Source: Patescibacteria group bacterium (GTDB lineage Bacteria; Patescibacteriota; Patescibacteriia; Veblenbacterales; UBA10138). Taken from it: a stretch of 64,000 nucleotides of DNA. The stretch covers positions 14,895 through 78,894 of the forward strand of contig JBAZOT010000003.1 of assembly GCA_041648575.1 (NCBI GenBank), read 5' to 3'. The position numbers were made by a program, and so were the translations under genes. This document shows positions 10,374 to 33,100 of this stretch, one piece after another. Within the stretch, counting starts at the first letter, position 1. Each line of letters starts with the position of its first letter. Below the pieces are notes generated by a model that saw only the letters and a list, made by a program, of their open reading frames with translations, was not told the DNA's origin and did not search any database.

Positions 10374-12881
10374 TTAATGATCTCTAACTTCTGCGTTAAA
10401 TTTTTTAATTAATATTTGCTTAATCTTTTCTATTACCTTGTCCACTTCTTCTGATGTTAATGTCCTATCCGAGGCACGTAAAGTCACGGTAAAGGCGATA
10501 CTGTGTTTAGGGGCGTAAACATCAAATAGTTCAATTGATTCTAATAAATCCATATTCTCAATTTCTTTTTGAATTTGAGACCAAGTTACCCTTTCTGGCA
10601 AAATAATTGATAGATCTCTCGCAGCTTCGGGGTACTCTGGTGGCGGTTCCGATGGGCTGGTCGGCCCTATTTCCAACATATCAAGTGACAACTCAATTAC
10701 TGCAGTAAATTCAGGCAAATCTAACTCCCGTCGTAATTTTTCTTGCAATATCCCGATGTGCCCAACTGTCTCGTTATTAATAATAATATCGGCTGCCATA
10801 TTTTCATTAAACCAGTCATGCTTAATTTTTTGCACTTCCACTAACTTAAAATCATTTTCCAGTTCATGGCCGATCTGTACGAGAACCCCAACCATATCAC
10901 GGTAACACCGGAGGAGGTCATCTCGTTCGTCACGTTTATTTCTACCAAGAACTATACCCAAATGAAACGGCTGTTTGGGTAAATTGCCACCCCCAGGTCT
11001 TCGTAAATACTCCTTACCGGATTCCGCCACAAAGACCCGGCCAATTTCAAACATTTTAACATTTTTATGTTTCTGACTATTTAAACCGGCTTGCCCTAAA
11101 AAGTTGGGTAATAAAGTTGGTCGTAAATAAGGCTTGCCCTGATCTGTTGGGTTTTCTAATTCAATACTTAAATCGCTTGTTATATGTTTACCTCTAATAG
11201 TCAGCCCAAAGTTTTGTAAATCTTTTTCACCCACAAATGAATGACTTAAAGTCTCTGTAAACCCAGCACCAATCAAGCACTCACGAATTTTTTGCATTAA
11301 CAATTGCTTTTCATCGGCCAATGGTTTAGTAATGGTAAAACTCGGCAGACTCGGCGTAATTTTTCCATAACCATAAATCCGTGCTACTTCCTCCAACAAA
11401 TCTTCACGAATTGTTACGTCTCTAGTGGCCCGCCATGAAGGCACGGTTACTTGCCATTTGACCACGCTGTCATCGCGATCCGCCCTGATCGGAGTGGCGA
11501 TCTTATGAGATTGCTTCGATCCGCTCGCAATGACTTTTATTTTAAAACCCAAATTCTCCAATATATTTTTAATCTGGCTATATTTTATTTTCGTACCCAA
11601 ACGCTCATTAATCCAATCGGGATTTACATTAATTTCAACCGGTTTAAATTTTTTAGGATATTCATCAACTAGGTCGCTGGCAACTTTTACGCCTGTAATT
11701 ATTTGTTGCATTATAGCCACAAAGCGCTTAATGCCAATTTCTGCTAGTTCTGGATCCAAAGCTTTTTCAAAACGAACAGATGCTTCGCTGCGTAAACCAA
11801 GTTTGCTGGCTGTTTGTCTTATACTAATCGGATTAAAAGTCGCAGATTCTACCACCAAGTTAGTTGTGCTAGATGAAACCTCACTAAACTCGCCACCCAT
11901 TACGCCAGCCACAGCAATCGCACTTTTATCATCAGCAATAACCAACATCTCACTGGATAATTTTCTGGATTCTCCATCTAGTGTTTTTATTACCTCTCCG
12001 GAGTTTGCTGTTCTGACAACAATTTTTGGAGAAGATAATTTTTGTAGATCAAAAGTGTGCAGTGGTTGGCCAGTTTCCAACATTACATAATTAGCAGCGT
12101 CCACCACATTATTTATTGATCTCATACCCAGGGCTTCTAATCTATTCTTTAACCATGTTGGTGATGAGGTAATCTTAATTCCAGCCAGCACCACCCCCAT
12201 ATACCTGTGGCATAAATCAGAGTTTTTAATTTCAACTTTAAACCCATTAGAGCCTTTTGGCAAATCAGCCAATTCCGGTAGTTTTAATTTTGTATTCCAC
12301 AAAGCTGCTAACTCCCTAGCCACACCCAAATGACTCCACAAATCAGGTCGATGAGTAATTGATTTATTATCAACTTCAATAACCAAATCATCTTTACCTA
12401 AAGCTTTGGCTAATAGTGTTCCAGGTTTAGCATCCAAATACGATAAATCCATAATGCCGTGCTCTGGTTCGTTATCATCAACCAAACCTAATTCTGCGGC
12501 CGAACAAGCCATACCATTACTTTTAACTCCACGAATAGTAGCAGCTTCCAATGACGCAAATTCACCCTCTCCATGCCATTTGACCAACGCGCCAGGTTGA
12601 GCCAGCGCGACTTTCATTCCTTCTTTTAAATTAATTCCTCCGCATACTATTTCCACTGTTTTGCCACCAATATCAACTGTAGCTAACTTTAATTTATCAG
12701 CATTAAGATGTGTTGATACTTTTATAACTAAGCCTACCGTGACTTTATTCAACTTTTCTGCCTCGCTGGTAACTGATTCTACCTCCATAACTGACATAGT
12801 CAAAAGCTCGCCCAACTCGCGCGCACTGATCCGCTTGGGTTTAACTATTAACTCTGCTAATGTTTTGTAAGAAAGATGCAT
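10374..12881 (-). CDS. pheT: Phenylalanine--tRNA ligase beta subunit
   Basis: 835-aa protein with tRNA-binding, B3/B4 and B5 domains and a class II-like C-terminus. Confidence 0.95.
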   Translation of the reverse strand: MHLSYKTLAELIVKPKRISARELGELLTMSVMEVESVTSEAEKLNKVTVGLVIKVSTHLNADKLKLATVDIGGKTVEIVCGGINLKEGMKVALAQPGALVKWHGEGEFASLEAATIRGVKSNGMACSAAELGLVDDNEPEHGIMDLSYLDAKPGTLLAKALGKDDLVIEVDNKSITHRPDLWSHLGVARELAALWNTKLKLPELADLPKGSNGFKVEIKNSDLCHRYMGVVLAGIKITSSPTWLKNRLEALGMRSINNVVDAANYVMLETGQPLHTFDLQKLSSPKIVVRTANSGEVIKTLDGESRKLSSEMLVIADDKSAIAVAGVMGGEFSEVSSSTTNLVVESATFNPISIRQTASKLGLRSEASVRFEKALDPELAEIGIKRFVAIMQQIITGVKVASDLVDEYPKKFKPVEINVNPDWINERLGTKIKYSQIKNILENLGFKIKVIASGSKQSHKIATPIRADRDDSVVKWQVTVPSWRATRDVTIREDLLEEVARIYGYGKITPSLPSFTITKPLADEKQLLMQKIRECLIGAGFTETLSHSFVGEKDLQNFGLTIRGKHITSDLSIELENPTDQGKPYLRPTLLPNFLGQAGLNSQKHKNVKMFEIGRVFVAESGKEYLRRPGGGNLPKQPFHLGIVLGRNKRDERDDLLRCYRDMVGVLVQIGHELENDFKLVEVQKIKHDWFNENMAADIIINNETVGHIGILQEKLRRELDLPEFTAVIELSLDMLEIGPTSPSEPPPEYPEAARDLSIILPERVTWSQIQKEIENMDLLESIELFDVYAPKHSIAFTVTLRASDRTLTSEEVDKVIEKIKQILIKKFNAEVRDH

Positions 12882-12979
12882 GTAATTTCAAAATGTAAAA
12901 ATCAAAATGCAAAATGACAGATTAAACTTTAAAATTAATAAATAATTTTGATTTTTGATTTTTTAATTTTAAATTAACT

Positions 12980-13003
12980 AAAATTGCTCTAAAAATCTTA
13001 AAT
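12980..13003. repeat. 24-bp direct repeat (copy 2) duplicating the 3' end of pheS
   Basis: aaaattgctctaaaaatcttaaat versus aaaattgttctaaaaatcttaaat at 13901..13924. Together they bracket the inserted gene 13035..13880. Confidence 0.6.
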
Positions 13004-13034
13004 TTACTGACAGAAGAAGAAATGATAAATAACC

Positions 13035-13880
13035 CTACTTAATATTTCTTGATGAAGCCTCGTGTAATCCAGTAGATAAATCGCCCTTTGGTTGACTTAG
13101 ACAAAACAATAACACATAATCTTGATCATTATTCTTTGAGGTGTAAGTATAATCTTGATCGGGACAACCTCCTTCCATCCATGGCTGAGGATTACTGGGT
13201 ATCTGCCCCATATACACGGTTTCAAGTTTAGCATCGCAGTGACTCATAAAACCTTTTGAACTTAAACACAACCCACCCACAGCCAACGGTGCGGTGACTT
13301 TTGGATAATAATTTAACTCATCAAAATAAAACTCTAGCACCGTTTGTATTTGCCTTACGTCTGACAATCGTTTACCATCTCGTGATTTTTCTAATTTAGA
13401 ACTACCTGCGGGTAATACGCCAAGTAGAATCACTGCGATAATTATGTAACTCACCACATTAAACAAAACAGTCAATAGTGCGGTTTGACGACGAGTAAAT
13501 CCAAGCTTAAACAACCTACTTTTTACTACCCAGTACTCAATAAAAACAGTCGCGGGGAATAAAAATATGATGAAATAGGCAACATCAGTACCATAACCGT
13601 TTATTGGTAAAATTCCACCAATTATAGAAGTAACAAGATTGGCGATTAAGGATACTAAAATACTTTGCTTCCACGAAATTTCTTTTTTAAAAATCCAGCG
13701 CGAGAAATAGTAAATAGCTAGTGTCTCTGAAATAAAAATTATTGGGTAAATATACCAAACCGGAAGTAATGTATAGATAATTGGGGCTGCTAAATCCGCG
13801 TGGGCTATACCAGGCATCAACAACATGATTCCAATAACAAACAAGAGTCTATTAATTTTTATAATTATAAGTCGATTCAT
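13035..13880 (-). CDS. Membrane protein with C-terminal type IV pilin-like domain (inserted between pheS and pheT)
   Basis: Four predicted TM helices at the N-terminus. C-terminal KLGFTRRQTALLTVLF...GKRLSDVRQIQTVLEFYFDELNYYP resembles the pilin/pseudopilin N-terminal helix followed by the conserved YY..YP region, with paired Cys residues. Flanked by 24-bp direct repeats. Confidence 0.5.
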   Translation of the reverse strand: MNRLIIIKINRLLFVIGIMLLMPGIAHADLAAPIIYTLLPVWYIYPIIFISETLAIYYFSRWIFKKEISWKQSILVSLIANLVTSIIGGILPINGYGTDVAYFIIFLFPATVFIEYWVVKSRLFKLGFTRRQTALLTVLFNVVSYIIIAVILLGVLPAGSSKLEKSRDGKRLSDVRQIQTVLEFYFDELNYYPKVTAPLAVGGLCLSSKGFMSHCDAKLETVYMGQIPSNPQPWMEGGCPDQDYTYTSKNNDQDYVLLFCLSQPKGDLSTGLHEASSRNIK

Positions 13881-13898
13881 AATAGAGTAAATAAAAAA

Positions 13899-14921
13899 TT
13901 AAAATTGTTCTAAAAATCTTAAATCACCCGATAAAAATAGACGGATGTCATCAATCTGATATTTCATCATAACCAAACGAGACAGGCCTAAGCCAAAGGC
14001 AAAACCAGAAAATTTTTCAGGATTTACACCTCCAGCTTTTAATACGTTGGGATGCACTAAACCACAAGGCATCAATTCCACCCAACCAGATTGCTTACAA
14101 ACACTGCAACCTTTACCACCGCAAATAAAGCATTTTACATCCAGCTCAAATCCCGGCTCCACAAATGGAAAATAACCAGGTCGCAATCGAATCTCCACCT
14201 CTTTTTTAAATATTCCTTTTAACAACTCATTCATTACCCCGATCAAATGAGCTACGGTTATACCCTCTGCCACTACCAAACCTTCTAAGTGCCAAAAAGT
14301 ATTATCATGAGAAGCGTCAGTTGCTTCATAACGAAAGACTTTTCCCGGCACTACTGCGCGCAAAGGTGCGCCATATTTTTCCAGAGCCCTTACTTGCACG
14401 GACGAAGTATGAGTACGAAGCAACATCCTGTTGCCACTAATTGGCTTTTTTTCTTTAATATAAAAAGTGTCTTGAATATCTCGTGCTGGATGCCAGGAGG
14501 GAATATTTAAAGCCTCAAAATTATAATACTCGCTTTCCAATTCTGGTCCATCGAGTACCATAAAACCCATAGAGCGAAACAAATCTTCTAGTTCTTTTTG
14601 TACAATGGTTATGGGATGATAATGCCCGCGCGCGGGTTTAATACCAGGCAAAGTAACATCAAAAAATTCATCTAACTCTTTATTATTAGAAATATTTTTT
14701 TGCGTAAAAGCATTTTCTAAATCAACCTTCAACTCATTGGCTAACTTACCTAAACGTGGCCTCTGTTCTATACTAGATGCTTTAACCAATTGCATGACAG
14801 CGGCTAACTCTCCCTTACGGCCTAAATACTTAATCTGCCAATTTCGTAATTCGGCAGTCGAACGTAAAGATGACAATTCAGTCAGCGCTTGTTTTTTTAC
14901 ATTATTAATCTTATCAATCAT
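13899..14921 (-). CDS. pheS: Phenylalanine--tRNA ligase alpha subunit
   Basis: Class II motifs (FRSMGF, NIPSWHPARD, GLGLSRLVM). The last 8 codons lie inside direct repeat copy 1 (13901..13924). Confidence 0.95.
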   Translation of the reverse strand: MIDKINNVKKQALTELSSLRSTAELRNWQIKYLGRKGELAAVMQLVKASSIEQRPRLGKLANELKVDLENAFTQKNISNNKELDEFFDVTLPGIKPARGHYHPITIVQKELEDLFRSMGFMVLDGPELESEYYNFEALNIPSWHPARDIQDTFYIKEKKPISGNRMLLRTHTSSVQVRALEKYGAPLRAVVPGKVFRYEATDASHDNTFWHLEGLVVAEGITVAHLIGVMNELLKGIFKKEVEIRLRPGYFPFVEPGFELDVKCFICGGKGCSVCKQSGWVELMPCGLVHPNVLKAGGVNPEKFSGFAFGLGLSRLVMMKYQIDDIRLFLSGDLRFLEQF

Positions 14922-25369: not shown

Positions 25370-25404
25370 ATTAAAAATTTAAAATTTAAAAATCAAAATG
25401 AAAA

Positions 25405-32711: not shown

Positions 32712-32749
32712 TAGTCATTTACCCTTTCGCGCGAAAGGGTAAATGACTA
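32712..32749. repeat. 38-bp perfect palindrome (tagtcatttaccctttcgc|gcgaaagggtaaatgacta)
   Basis: Exact symmetry. Lies ~35 bp upstream of the -35 of the promoter above and downstream of arsR. Its inner half-site is reused in the imperfect site upstream of arsR. Confidence 0.7.
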
Positions 32750-32777: not shown

Positions 32778-33056
32778 TTAGCTAGTCTGACGGACTTGCT
32801 TAAGAAGCTGCTGCAACAAACTACTTAACCCCTCATCTAAACTATATAGACCTACGTATCCAAATTGCCTGCGTTCTAAAAACCCCACTTGCCGCAATAG
32901 CACTAAGTGTTTAGAGGTGGACTTAAATGATAGATGAATCGCCGTCGCAACGTCACCTACTGTCCGCTCTTTACCATCGGACAACAACCTTAGTATCTCC
33001 AGCCGCTTTCTCGCACCCAGCGCCCGGTAAACCTTTTCTAACTCTCGTAGACGCAT
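32778..33056 (-). CDS. ArsR/SmtB-family HTH transcriptional regulator
   Basis: 92-aa protein. RLEILRLLSDGKERTVGDVATAIHLSFKSTSKHLVLLRQVGF is a winged-helix ArsR signature. Confidence 0.75.
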   Translation of the reverse strand: MRLRELEKVYRALGARKRLEILRLLSDGKERTVGDVATAIHLSFKSTSKHLVLLRQVGFLERRQFGYVGLYSLDEGLSSLLQQLLKQVRQTS

Positions 33057-33072
33057 GTTGGTAGTATATCAT

Positions 33073-33100
33073 ATTTACTGATTCGCGCGAAAGGGTAAAT
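33073..33100. promoter_or_regulatory. Imperfect palindrome (atttactgattcgcgcgaaagggtaaat) in the arsR promoter region; candidate autoregulatory operator
   Basis: Shares the half-site CGCGCGAAAGGGTAAAT with the perfect palindrome at 32712..32749. Sits 17 to 44 bp upstream of the arsR ATG and is nested in TGTTGGT...ACCAACA. Confidence 0.45.

Follow-up and report, generated by a model that had tools for sequence, protein, structure and literature searches.

The window (the entire stretch of 64,000 nucleotides of Patescibacteria DNA that was analysed) carries on its minus strand the genes of the two subunits of phenylalanyl-tRNA synthetase, with a third gene lying between them. pheS (alpha subunit, 340 amino acids; 13899..14921, minus strand) matches Pfam PF01409 (9.6e-92) and PF02912, and its product is 72% identical to those of the relatives L001 and L002 in the genome scan; pheT (beta subunit, 835 amino acids; 10374..12881, minus strand) carries the five PheT domains (B3_4, tRNA_synthFbeta, FDX-ACB, B5 and tRNA_bind). 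The open reading frame (ORF) originally predicted to separate them is indeed present at 13035..13880 (846 nt with its stop codon, 281 amino acids, minus strand), and all three ORFs are intact. gyrB and dciA are located near this site. The intervening gene belongs to an 893-bp segment (13004..13896, minus strand) that is missing from the syntenic relatives L002 and L003; the ORF starts 18 nt past the pheS stop codon, and 31 nt follow its own stop. Because it starts so close to pheS and has neither a terminator of its own nor a convincing promoter (promoter-like matches are at chance level), the inserted gene is probably co-transcribed with pheST. Its composition is host-like (GC 0.36, GC3 0.31). 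Codon usage was considered as a sign of foreign origin: the host-likeness of the insert is the lowest (0.10, against 0.13-0.24), yet its GC and GC3 are those of the host and its product is a membrane protein, so this measure is not decisive. On the upstream side of pheT lies the ancestral pheS-pheT spacer (12882..12975, minus strand), identified by its match to the sequence that follows pheS in L001; it is A/T-rich and contains an imperfect hairpin, whose fold z-score of -1.6 is not significant.

Two copies of the pheS end bracket the segment. Copy 1 (13897..13924, minus strand) is the functional tail, comprising the last 26 nt of the gene with its TAA stop and 2 nt beyond; copy 2 (12976..13003, minus strand) is a displaced, non-functional tail that encodes LRFLEQF*, terminates in TAG and adjoins the ancestral spacer. 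The duplication was originally described as a 24-mer, which occurs exactly twice in the 64-kb window, once at 13901-13924 and once, differing in a single position, at 12980-13003, and finds no match in any of 100 shuffled sequences. It extends to 28 nt (12976-13003 and 13897-13924, 26/28 identical, at a spacing of 921), whereas the best 28-mer match downstream of pheS in the shuffle test reaches a null maximum of 21. Nor is the 28-mer a dispersed motif, as a generic, frequently occurring sequence would be: when 160 related loci are added to the window and to 83 kb of its contig, the only matches of at least 22/28 away from a pheS end are the remnant itself and a single 22/28 sequence. The two differences between the copies (GAA/GAG and TAA/TAG) are both silent in the pheS frame, which fits both copies having once been coding ends; the remnant reads ...SVNLRFLEQF*, in the same frame as the TAG stop of the insert. 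The 18 nt upstream of the functional tail match L001 and L002 at 15-16/18, so native-like pheS runs directly into the functional tail. An extension of the remnant to ~45 nt (LLLSVN...) does not hold up, its flank matching pheS at 9/17-18 and any orthologue at no better than 11/18, which is a weak hint only.

The identity of the two copies is not by itself proof of a recent duplication, since the orthologous tails of other genera already match at 20-27/28. The same near-invariance of the tail DNA across related genera, among orthologues whose proteins are 58-72% identical, suggests that the pheS tail could serve as a recombination target common to several lineages. An assembly artefact or a chance repeat might be suspected because the sequence comes from a metagenome-assembled genome and is AT-rich here. 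Either is extremely improbable: the shuffled sequences do not yield such a match, the ORFs are intact and co-oriented, and the composition is that of the host. Misassembly induced by the repeat is unlikely because the longest exact stretch common to the two copies is only 16 nt. Several recorded contigs, among them a separate one of 10-20 kb, encode the identical insert protein between the same neighbours.

The nearest syntenic relatives supply the empty site that the original prediction supposed: pheS and pheT are 0 nt apart in L002 and 4 nt apart in L003. The first 24 nt past the stop codon of the remnant match the first 24 nt past the pheS stop codon of L001 at 21 positions, in register (20 or more matches have a null frequency of 0.0005), whereas the sequence past the functional pheS stop matches L001 at only 11/24. 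The insert is not homologous to the 76 nt that follow pheS in L001, and the TAG stop of the remnant is also the pheS stop of L001. The narrow gaps in the relatives and the match beyond the remnant identify the 893-bp segment, on sequence comparison, as a lineage-specific insertion, and the remnant as the ancestral end of pheS. In the search for closer strains the metagenome scan reached 68% at best and the genome scan 72%, and the 90% clusters of pheS, insert and pheT are all singletons.

The premise that pheS and pheT are normally adjacent is only half right, for 58 of 126 unique pheS-pheT junctions in relatives (46%) have a gap of at least 120 nt and hold at least 15 unrelated ORF families. 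The junction is not a special insertion hotspot: nearby junctions are equally or more variable, and at pheT-gyrB the proportion with a gap of at least 120 nt is 74%. None of the 73 relatives with a filled pheS-pheT gap has a comparable tail duplication (three reach p<=0.05, against 3.65 expected). A candidate second displaced tail in L014/L113 (20/28, p~0.005) turned out to be one arm of the inverted repeats that bound a MITE-like non-coding insert, and the gap ORF of L051 is not significant as a second pilin-like insert.

The product of the inserted gene is a fusion of a multi-transmembrane (TM) module with a pilin-like globular domain that has two pairs of cysteines, as had been proposed; HMMER, profile comparison with the PDB, AlphaFold and hydropathy all bear this out. 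Residues 1-156 (13413..13880, minus strand) comprise, by hydropathy, charge and AlphaFold, a signal-like segment (AHA|D) and four TM helices; the helices of the AlphaFold model span residues 2-38, 41-64, 70-93, 99-125 and 130-155, and the K/R-rich loops lie at residues 57-72 and 119-137. The sole homologue of this module is P0034, a stand-alone protein of 162 amino acids (36% identity over residues 25-152, E 1e-19). Residues 157-281, with the stop codon (13035..13412, minus strand), form a domain resembling GspG and the type IV pilins, for which an exhaustive HMMER search returns 2033 matches, mostly pilins of ~150 amino acids. Its family profile finds geopilin, GspG and PilA in the PDB at 1e-16 to 1e-4, including the GspG soluble domains 3fu1, 4lw9 and 3gn9. 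The AlphaFold model (pLDDT above 90) has a helix at 158-189 (alpha1C) and 6 strands forming a beta-sheet, and the cysteine pairs of the domain are Cys205/215 and Cys239/260; Foldseek puts pseudopilins and pilins first, though weakly (E~0.4), and the NCBIfam GspG match is weak. The long alpha1 helix packed on an antiparallel beta-sheet and the homology with GspG and pilins that define a pilin-family globular domain are thus both present.

What does not survive is the reading of KLGFTRRQ as a pilin N-terminus. These letters, residues ~125-132, fall within the N-terminal module, in a loop on its cytoplasmic side where P0034 has KYDFTSRQ, and the only G-F of the protein (residues ~127-128, followed by T-R-R-Q) comes after four hydrophobic segments. 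The prepilin motif N_methyl (PF07963) has no match in the insert protein, whereas it is present in 39 of 53 members of the family of the C-terminal domain; PF08334 is present in 21 of the 53. Pilus and secretion machinery genes (PilB/C/D, GspE/F) are absent from the 64-kb window and from 5.3-88.3 kb of the contig. The Pam pilus (preprint 10.64898/2026.03.03.709456), considered as a possible relation, is an unrelated Ig-like donor-strand system. The protein is predicted to begin with a signal-like segment that can be cleaved, to cross the membrane in four TM helices with K/R-rich loops on the cytoplasmic side, and to direct a disulfide-bearing pilin/GspG-like domain outward; because of this combination it is predicted to be a membrane-anchored surface protein rather than a pilus subunit.

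A search for the means by which this gene came to its place yields no feature that identifies the element as mobile, and it is a single case. Pfam scans of ORFs of at least 120 amino acids in the 64-kb window, and precomputed Pfam assignments for the flanks (contig 5.3-88.3 kb), show no integrase or transposase; 83 kb of the contig show no tyrosine or serine recombinase, Xer included. In all the collections searched, the gene and the repeat are each without a second copy: among 15 billion proteins no relative of the insert protein exceeds ~46% identity. Viral contigs (queried with the protein and with a 25-mer) and phage and plasmid records give no matches, and neither a circular form nor a donor of the gene was found. 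The suggestion of a target-site duplication or an att-like signature accordingly divides: an att-like origin may apply, with no recombinase, recurrence or second element found in its favour, and a transposon target-site duplication does not fit. An insertion sequence, MITE or transposon would account for direct repeats flanking the insert, and that is where the resemblance ends. The segment has one ORF, which does not encode a transposase, and none is found in the 83 kb; terminal inverted repeats are missing at 13004 and 13896 (near the two ends the best inverted pair, 15 nt at 80%, is not terminal), and neither the contig nor any database searched contains a further copy. Known target duplications measure 2-15 bp, and 28 bp is far above that range. 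This reading is effectively refuted. The features of an integron cassette are likewise missing, there being no integrase, a junction (GTTAATT) unlike GTTRRRY, and no structured attC among the inverted repeats. Of the marks of an integrative element, direct repeats at both junctions and an intact target gene are present; a recombinase gene was not found in the 83 kb, nor recurrence in the collections searched.

A site-specific recombinase encoded elsewhere in the genome could have acted on the 28-mer as an att- or dif-like core, the segment then being a cassette like an Xer-dependent element or a pdif module. Direct repeats around a single promoterless gene are what this would produce, and the insert sequence next to the core bears a weak likeness to pheS, such as a degenerate attP arm would show. 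The 28-mer also divides 11-6-11, its arms being complementary at 8/11 positions in copy 1 and 7/11 in copy 2; an arm score of at least 8 is reached by 0.25% of all 28-mers and 0.8% of AT-rich ones (frequencies that carry no correction for the choice of register, the symmetry having been found post hoc), and orthologous pheS tails mostly score 4-7. The dyad partly reflects the coding of LRFLEQF*, and the similarity to dif is at chance level: the 28-mer matches the dif sites of E. coli, B. subtilis and H. influenzae at 12-16/28, whereas chance alone yields matches of up to 19/28 in the window. On such marginal symmetry and chance-level similarity, an Xer/dif site is an improbable assignment. The 83 kb encode no tyrosine or serine recombinase, and neither the 160 loci nor the viral contigs show a recurrence; the participation of a distant site-specific recombinase is quite unlikely. 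Decidedly unlikely is a specific elaboration, that the 921-bp unit of gene plus 28-bp core is a minimal recombinase-less integrative cassette that would cycle between genomes as a circle and insert at the near-invariant, partly dyad-symmetric pheS 3' end by way of host Xer-type recombinases or RecA.

The explanation that we favour, tentatively and with a probability of roughly 0.4, is that a small circular DNA integrated by a single crossover (Campbell-type) at the pheS tail, which is highly conserved. A circle of ~0.9 kb bearing the insert gene and a copy of the 28-bp pheS tail would recombine with the resident tail, and the crossover would leave the insert between two tail copies, the upstream one completing pheS and the downstream one staying joined to pheT through the original spacer. 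Neither essential gene would be disrupted, which is probably why the event survived. The crossover might have been made by RecA on near-minimal homology, or by a recombinase encoded elsewhere in the genome. The minimal segment for efficient RecA-mediated recombination in E. coli is ~23-27 bp, placing 28 bp at the lower limit. CPR bacteria are documented to have Com genes and to undergo natural transformation (PMC10187176). The corresponding synthetic junctions are ...GGTGATTTAAGATTTTTAGARCAATTTTARTTAATTTAAAATTAAAAAATC for the empty site and, for the circle in the Campbell and cassette models, ...CTTCTTCTGTCAGTAA-ATTTAAGATTTTTAGARCAATTTTARTT-TTTTATTTACTCTATTATG. Campbell-type integration draws its support from the unique, non-random repeat, the empty sites of L002 and L003, the native context of the functional tail and of the remnant, the conservation of the tail, the silent differences between the copies, the lack of inverted ends and of nearby mobility genes, and the weak additional likeness to pheS (9/17-18) on the upstream flank of the remnant. 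Against it stand the failure to find a circle, a donor or a second copy of the gene, and the filled gaps, among which 0/73 has a significant second tail, so that the mechanism is not seen to recur. The nearest relatives are, moreover, too diverged for a donor tract to be detected in pheS, and a staggered break with fill-in or displacement by linear DNA could yield the same end product.

The first of these two routes is unlikely. A staggered break of ~28 nt at the pheS end, or a replication template switch, would have captured an unrelated fragment with no homology of its own, and fill-in would have doubled the 28 nt. Precisely the observed product would result, with both flanks native, and no element-encoded function is needed, in keeping with the absence of any. 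No bacterial enzyme is known to cut with a 28-nt stagger; it is left unexplained why the duplication covers just the stretch of the tail that is most conserved and stops 2 nt past the stop codon; and two later substitutions, both of which happen to be silent, must be supposed.

Displacement of the 3' end by linear foreign DNA, through homology-facilitated illegitimate recombination after transformation, is unlikely. A fragment from a related donor, containing the 3' part of pheS and the new gene, would anchor in pheS, and its non-homologous end would join 26 nt before the resident stop codon; the working tail would thus come from the donor, and the resident one would have been shoved downstream, as proposed for Rhs/CDI/T6SS effector loci. 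Here, too, new DNA directly follows a conserved anchor gene and is itself followed by a displaced resident 3' end. Small genes right after pheS are common in relatives, so donor fragments exist; two orthologous coding tails would be expected to differ silently, as these do, and the remnant shares its TAG with L001. The mechanism and the analogous displacement are documented (PMC3240628, PMC5361080), as is competence in the CPR (PMC10187176). pheS and pheT have the same nearest relatives, which argues against a donor-derived tail, and the functional tail is closer to the nearest relatives than is the upstream flank of the remnant. No breakpoint is seen along pheS, in a test of low power: synonymous identity runs at 0.45-0.62 with no clear step, synonymous sites being near saturation in the nearest relatives, and the value of 0.75-0.80 for the last 16 codons (against L001 and L002) is not significant. 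Homology-facilitated illegitimate recombination, moreover, usually deletes recipient DNA beside the anchor and does not duplicate part of it.

By whichever route it arrived, a single orphan pilin-like gene in the essential pheS-pheT operon has left a clear insertion footprint, as a one-off event known from this one case. Patescibacteria genomes are small and highly syntenic, yet contain many unrelated small genes between conserved neighbours. The footprints of such gains have usually decayed; the pheS-pheT locus retains one, a 28-bp duplicated gene end with both essential genes intact. Empty or circular forms in closer relatives or in reads would turn it into a concrete model for the gain of accessory genes in Patescibacteria, and the cassette reading, if true, would provide a way for small accessory genes for surface proteins to enter conserved operons of these bacteria with no harm to essential genes. 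The insert protein exemplifies a recurrent theme of the group, the reuse of pilin-type globular domains on non-pilin membrane anchors, which bears on the biology of the cell surface and of host contact.

The closest formal parallel is with integrative elements that rebuild the 3' end of a gene. Their classic targets are tRNA and tmRNA genes, and Campbell integration generates the direct repeats attL and attR. As in such elements, the insert lies at a conserved gene end that the duplication keeps intact, short direct repeats bracket it, and the displaced copy adjoins the original downstream DNA; unlike them, it occupies the end of a protein-coding gene, measures 893 bp, holds one gene and no integrase, and is not known to recur or to have a second att-bearing copy. 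With Xer-dependent integrative elements and pdif modules it shares the 28-bp length of the repeat, a partial 11-6-11 dyad, a single-gene cargo and a recombinase that would act in trans; it differs from them in that here dif similarity is at chance, symmetry is marginal, the site is in a coding end near gyrB and dciA and not at the terminus, and 83 kb contain no Xer. [quoted passage not shown] As for the protein, it lacks the class III signal peptide, N-methylation motif and Glu5 of type IV pilins and GspG, and its globular domain sits on a signal-peptide and 4-TM module in the pheST operon, away from pilus genes; its C-terminal 125 residues, with the conserved motif R-D-x2-R-x2-D...L-E...Y-P, two disulfides and a preceding hydrophobic helix, nevertheless belong with the globular domains of the type IV pilins and T2SS pseudopilins (GspG) of Patescibacteria.

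All genes of the pheS-insert-pheT region lie on the minus strand of a 101-kb contig: pheS (13899..14921), the inserted ORF WC575_01135 (13035..13880; 281 aa) and pheT (10374..12881). The 24-bp repeat of the original prediction occurs exactly twice in the window, with no match in 100 shuffles, and is part of a longer, 28-nt repeat (12976-13003 and 13897-13924; spacing 921) with 26/28 identity. Copy 1 comprises the final 26 nt of pheS, TAA stop included, plus 2 nt; copy 2, the remnant, translates as LRFLEQF followed by a TAG stop, in the frame in which the inserted ORF ends, likewise at a TAG. Both differences between the copies are silent (GAA/GAG, TAA/TAG). A search for the 28-mer as a dispersed motif found, away from pheS ends, one other match of at least 22/28 (22/28) in all of the sequence compared, and the window holds no further repeat-bracketed insert. 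A chance repeat or an assembly artefact is an unlikely source of the duplication, because the shuffle test gives a null maximum of 21 against the observed 26/28, because several contigs on record carry this identical protein in the same gene neighbourhood, and because the longest exact stretch common to the two copies is only 16 nt; we consider an artefact highly improbable.

The host is an uncultured Patescibacteria bacterium and a singleton species in the databases (at 90% identity, pheS, the insert and pheT each form a cluster of one); its nearest PheS relatives stand at 72% identity in genomes and 68% in metagenomes. The order AddA-DciA-TM131-pheS-pheT-gyrB is kept in the nearest relatives, and the empty site that one would look for exists: pheS-pheT spacing is 0 nt in L002 and 4 nt in L003, the closest loci with both genes. 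The contig of L001 (72%) stops 76 nt past pheS, in a stretch with no relation to the insert. Its first 24 nt match the sequence past the remnant's stop in register at 21/24, versus 11/24 for the sequence past the functional pheS stop (null frequency of ≥20/24 among AT-rich 24-mers, 0.0005), while just upstream of copy 1 the agreement with L001 and L002 is 15-16/18. Copy 1 thus continues the native pheS, copy 2 leads into the native spacer and pheT, and the intervening 893 bp (13004-13896) are an insertion. The pheT-upstream spacer (12882-12975) contains an imperfect hairpin of the A/T-rich motif AAAAATCAAAAAT(CAAAAT), which recurs at 25374-25400, between the genes for ATP synthase gamma and alpha; the pheS-pheT spacer of the related locus L083 (3620-3735) has a comparable hairpin built of (TCAAAR)n.

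The notion that pheS and pheT are normally adjacent, and the site therefore special, holds only in part: 48 of 126 unique junctions in relatives have gaps <20 nt, but 58 have gaps ≥120 nt. Co-oriented gap ORFs belong to at least 15 unrelated families, including Cys-rich proteins, an IS200-like gene, and thioredoxin-like lipoproteins and PQ-loop-like membrane proteins, these last two at about 15 loci each; the window's gene forms a family by itself. Gain of genes between conserved neighbours is general in these genomes rather than specific to pheS-pheT, since the control junction pheT-gyrB is even more variable (65% of gaps ≥300 nt, versus 33% for pheS-pheT, among 160 related loci). What is unique at the window's locus is the footprint, the duplicated tail. 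A second copy of a relative's own pheS tail appears only at chance level in the 73 relatives with a filled gap (3 at p≤0.05 versus 3.65 expected), and the best of these (20/28, in L014 and L113) turned out to lie in one of the inverted-repeat arms that enclose a non-coding insert. That 362-nt gap (L014 7047-7345, a Falkowbacteria genome; same sequence in L113) lacks an ORF, is bounded by AAGTAAGGTTCTTTAGA / TCTAAAGAACCTAAAGTA, encloses a second inverted pair, TTGTCATTCCCG...CGGGAATGACAA, and looks MITE-like. The gap of L017 (7354-7929, a Parcubacteria genome) holds a 191-aa putative IS200/REP-associated tyrosine-transposase-like ORF.

Any mechanism must account for the insertion of one promoterless gene, a 28-bp duplication that falls on the best-conserved part of the pheS end, native sequence on both flanks, two intact essential genes and the absence of element-encoded functions. 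The topologically simplest route, to which we assign a probability of roughly 0.4, is Campbell integration: a small circular DNA carrying a tail copy would meet the resident pheS tail, and a single reciprocal crossover between the two, through RecA or a recombinase encoded elsewhere, would insert it. The pheS tail is exceptionally well conserved in its nucleotide sequence. Orthologues at only 58-72% protein identity match the window tail at 20-27/28, so 26/28 alone cannot tell a recent duplication in situ from orthologous tails joined by recombination. Upstream of the remnant, similarity to pheS continues weakly (9/17-18; LLLSVN versus LFLSGD), and this flank has no good match among orthologues (≤11/18). 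The same product would also result from a staggered break or a template switch followed by fill-in, with no homology on the incoming DNA; this is the foremost of the unlikely alternatives. Next comes displacement of the pheS 3' end by linear DNA anchored there, also unlikely; such homology-anchored displacement normally deletes recipient DNA rather than duplicating it. It is nevertheless a documented process (PMC3240628, PMC5361080), plausible in competent CPR bacteria (PMC10187176).

A transposon has very little probability. Terminal inverted repeats are missing from both ends of the insert, and Pfam finds no mobility genes among window ORFs ≥120 aa, only housekeeping genes (L1, L11, NusG, GyrB, PheST, DciA, AddA-like helicase, F-ATPase, several tRNA synthetases, RecO, ClpB and others); the contig flanks (5.3-88.3 kb) add none. 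An exhaustive search found no relative of the insert protein above ~46% identity, and viral contigs, phage records and plasmid records gave 0 matches, nor do the viral contigs contain the tail 25-mer. Insert GC and GC3 are those of the host; no gene of the window scores lower in codon usage, but for a membrane protein such a score carries no decisive weight. No tRNA genes were found, only a tmRNA. At ~59.3-59.7 kb (7931-8188 of L165, the same contig overlapping and extending beyond the window) a stand-alone 85-aa GIY-YIG ORF is flanked by infC (IF3) and the tmRNA/smpB pair; just past the window's end (L165 11089-19861) are two adjacent giant ORFs of 1305 and 1554 aa with 0 Pfam matches.

The inserted gene is most likely expressed by read-through from pheS, as predicted from the 18-nt distance to the pheS stop, the absence of a terminator and promoter-like matches at chance level. 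Elsewhere in the window, a 28-nt GC-rich palindrome (ATTTACCCTTTCGCGCGAAAGGGTAAAT; second copy imperfect) at 32717-32744 and 33073-33100 flanks a 92-aa ArsR/SmtB-like winged-helix ORF (32778..33056, minus), and probably provides operators for self-regulation and for the downstream secreted protein.

The predicted mosaic of a four-TM module and a pilin-like domain is borne out. Residues 1-156 form a distinct module in which a signal-like segment, with AHA|D at its end, is followed by four TM helices. Its loops at 57-72 and 119-137 are rich in K/R, so that under the positive-inside rule the C-terminal domain would lie outside the cell. The module's only relative, the 162-aa stand-alone protein P0034 (36% identity across residues 25-152, E 1e-19), has its gene beside a flavodoxin-like gene, with no pilins nearby. 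Because P0034 has KYDFTSRQ where the window protein has KLGFTRRQ, the latter is a motif of the membrane module and not, as had been proposed, of the pilin-like domain; nor is it a prepilin cleavage site.

The family to which residues ~157-281 belong is very large (2033 matches at E≤1e-3) and consists mostly of ~150-aa canonical pilins with GFTLIELLVV...RDAKRxxDIRQIQTALELYY. A 53-member profile (N_methyl motif in 39, T2SSG in 21) matches geopilin, PulG/GspG and PilA structures, GspG soluble domains included, at E 1e-16 to 1e-4. The AlphaFold model packs helix 158-189 on a beta-sheet (mean pLDDT 82; C-terminal domain >90), Foldseek ranks pseudopilins and pilins weakly at the top, the near-invariant family residues are all present, and the paired Cys are 205/215 and 239/260. 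Anchored pilin-like domains are a recurrent design in this group, since the same domain is elsewhere fused to zinc-ribbon plus TM, RDD, lipoprotein or multi-TM anchors; the window's combination is new. Among the homologues P0003, P0004, P0060, P0078 and P0107, some are large proteins (450-855 aa) in which the pilin-like globular domain is repeated in tandem two or three times, and others carry it on an anchor of the RDD, zinc-ribbon or lipoprotein type. Its use extends well beyond pilus subunits. The window protein shares it with type IV pilins but lacks their defining N-terminus, no N_methyl motif being detected.

The insert does not qualify as a transposon, an integron cassette or an integrase-bearing element. 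A dedicated att/dif-type site with a recombinase acting in trans has a low probability. The 28-mer can be divided 11-6-11 with arms 8/11 complementary (seen in 0.8% of AT-rich 28-mers), and matches three dif sequences at 12-16/28, less than the 19/28 that the window reaches by chance at best. The locus presents a clean but single insertion footprint, and the event resembles in its working either an integration at a conserved gene's 3' end that rebuilds this end, or 3'-end displacement at polymorphic toxin loci.
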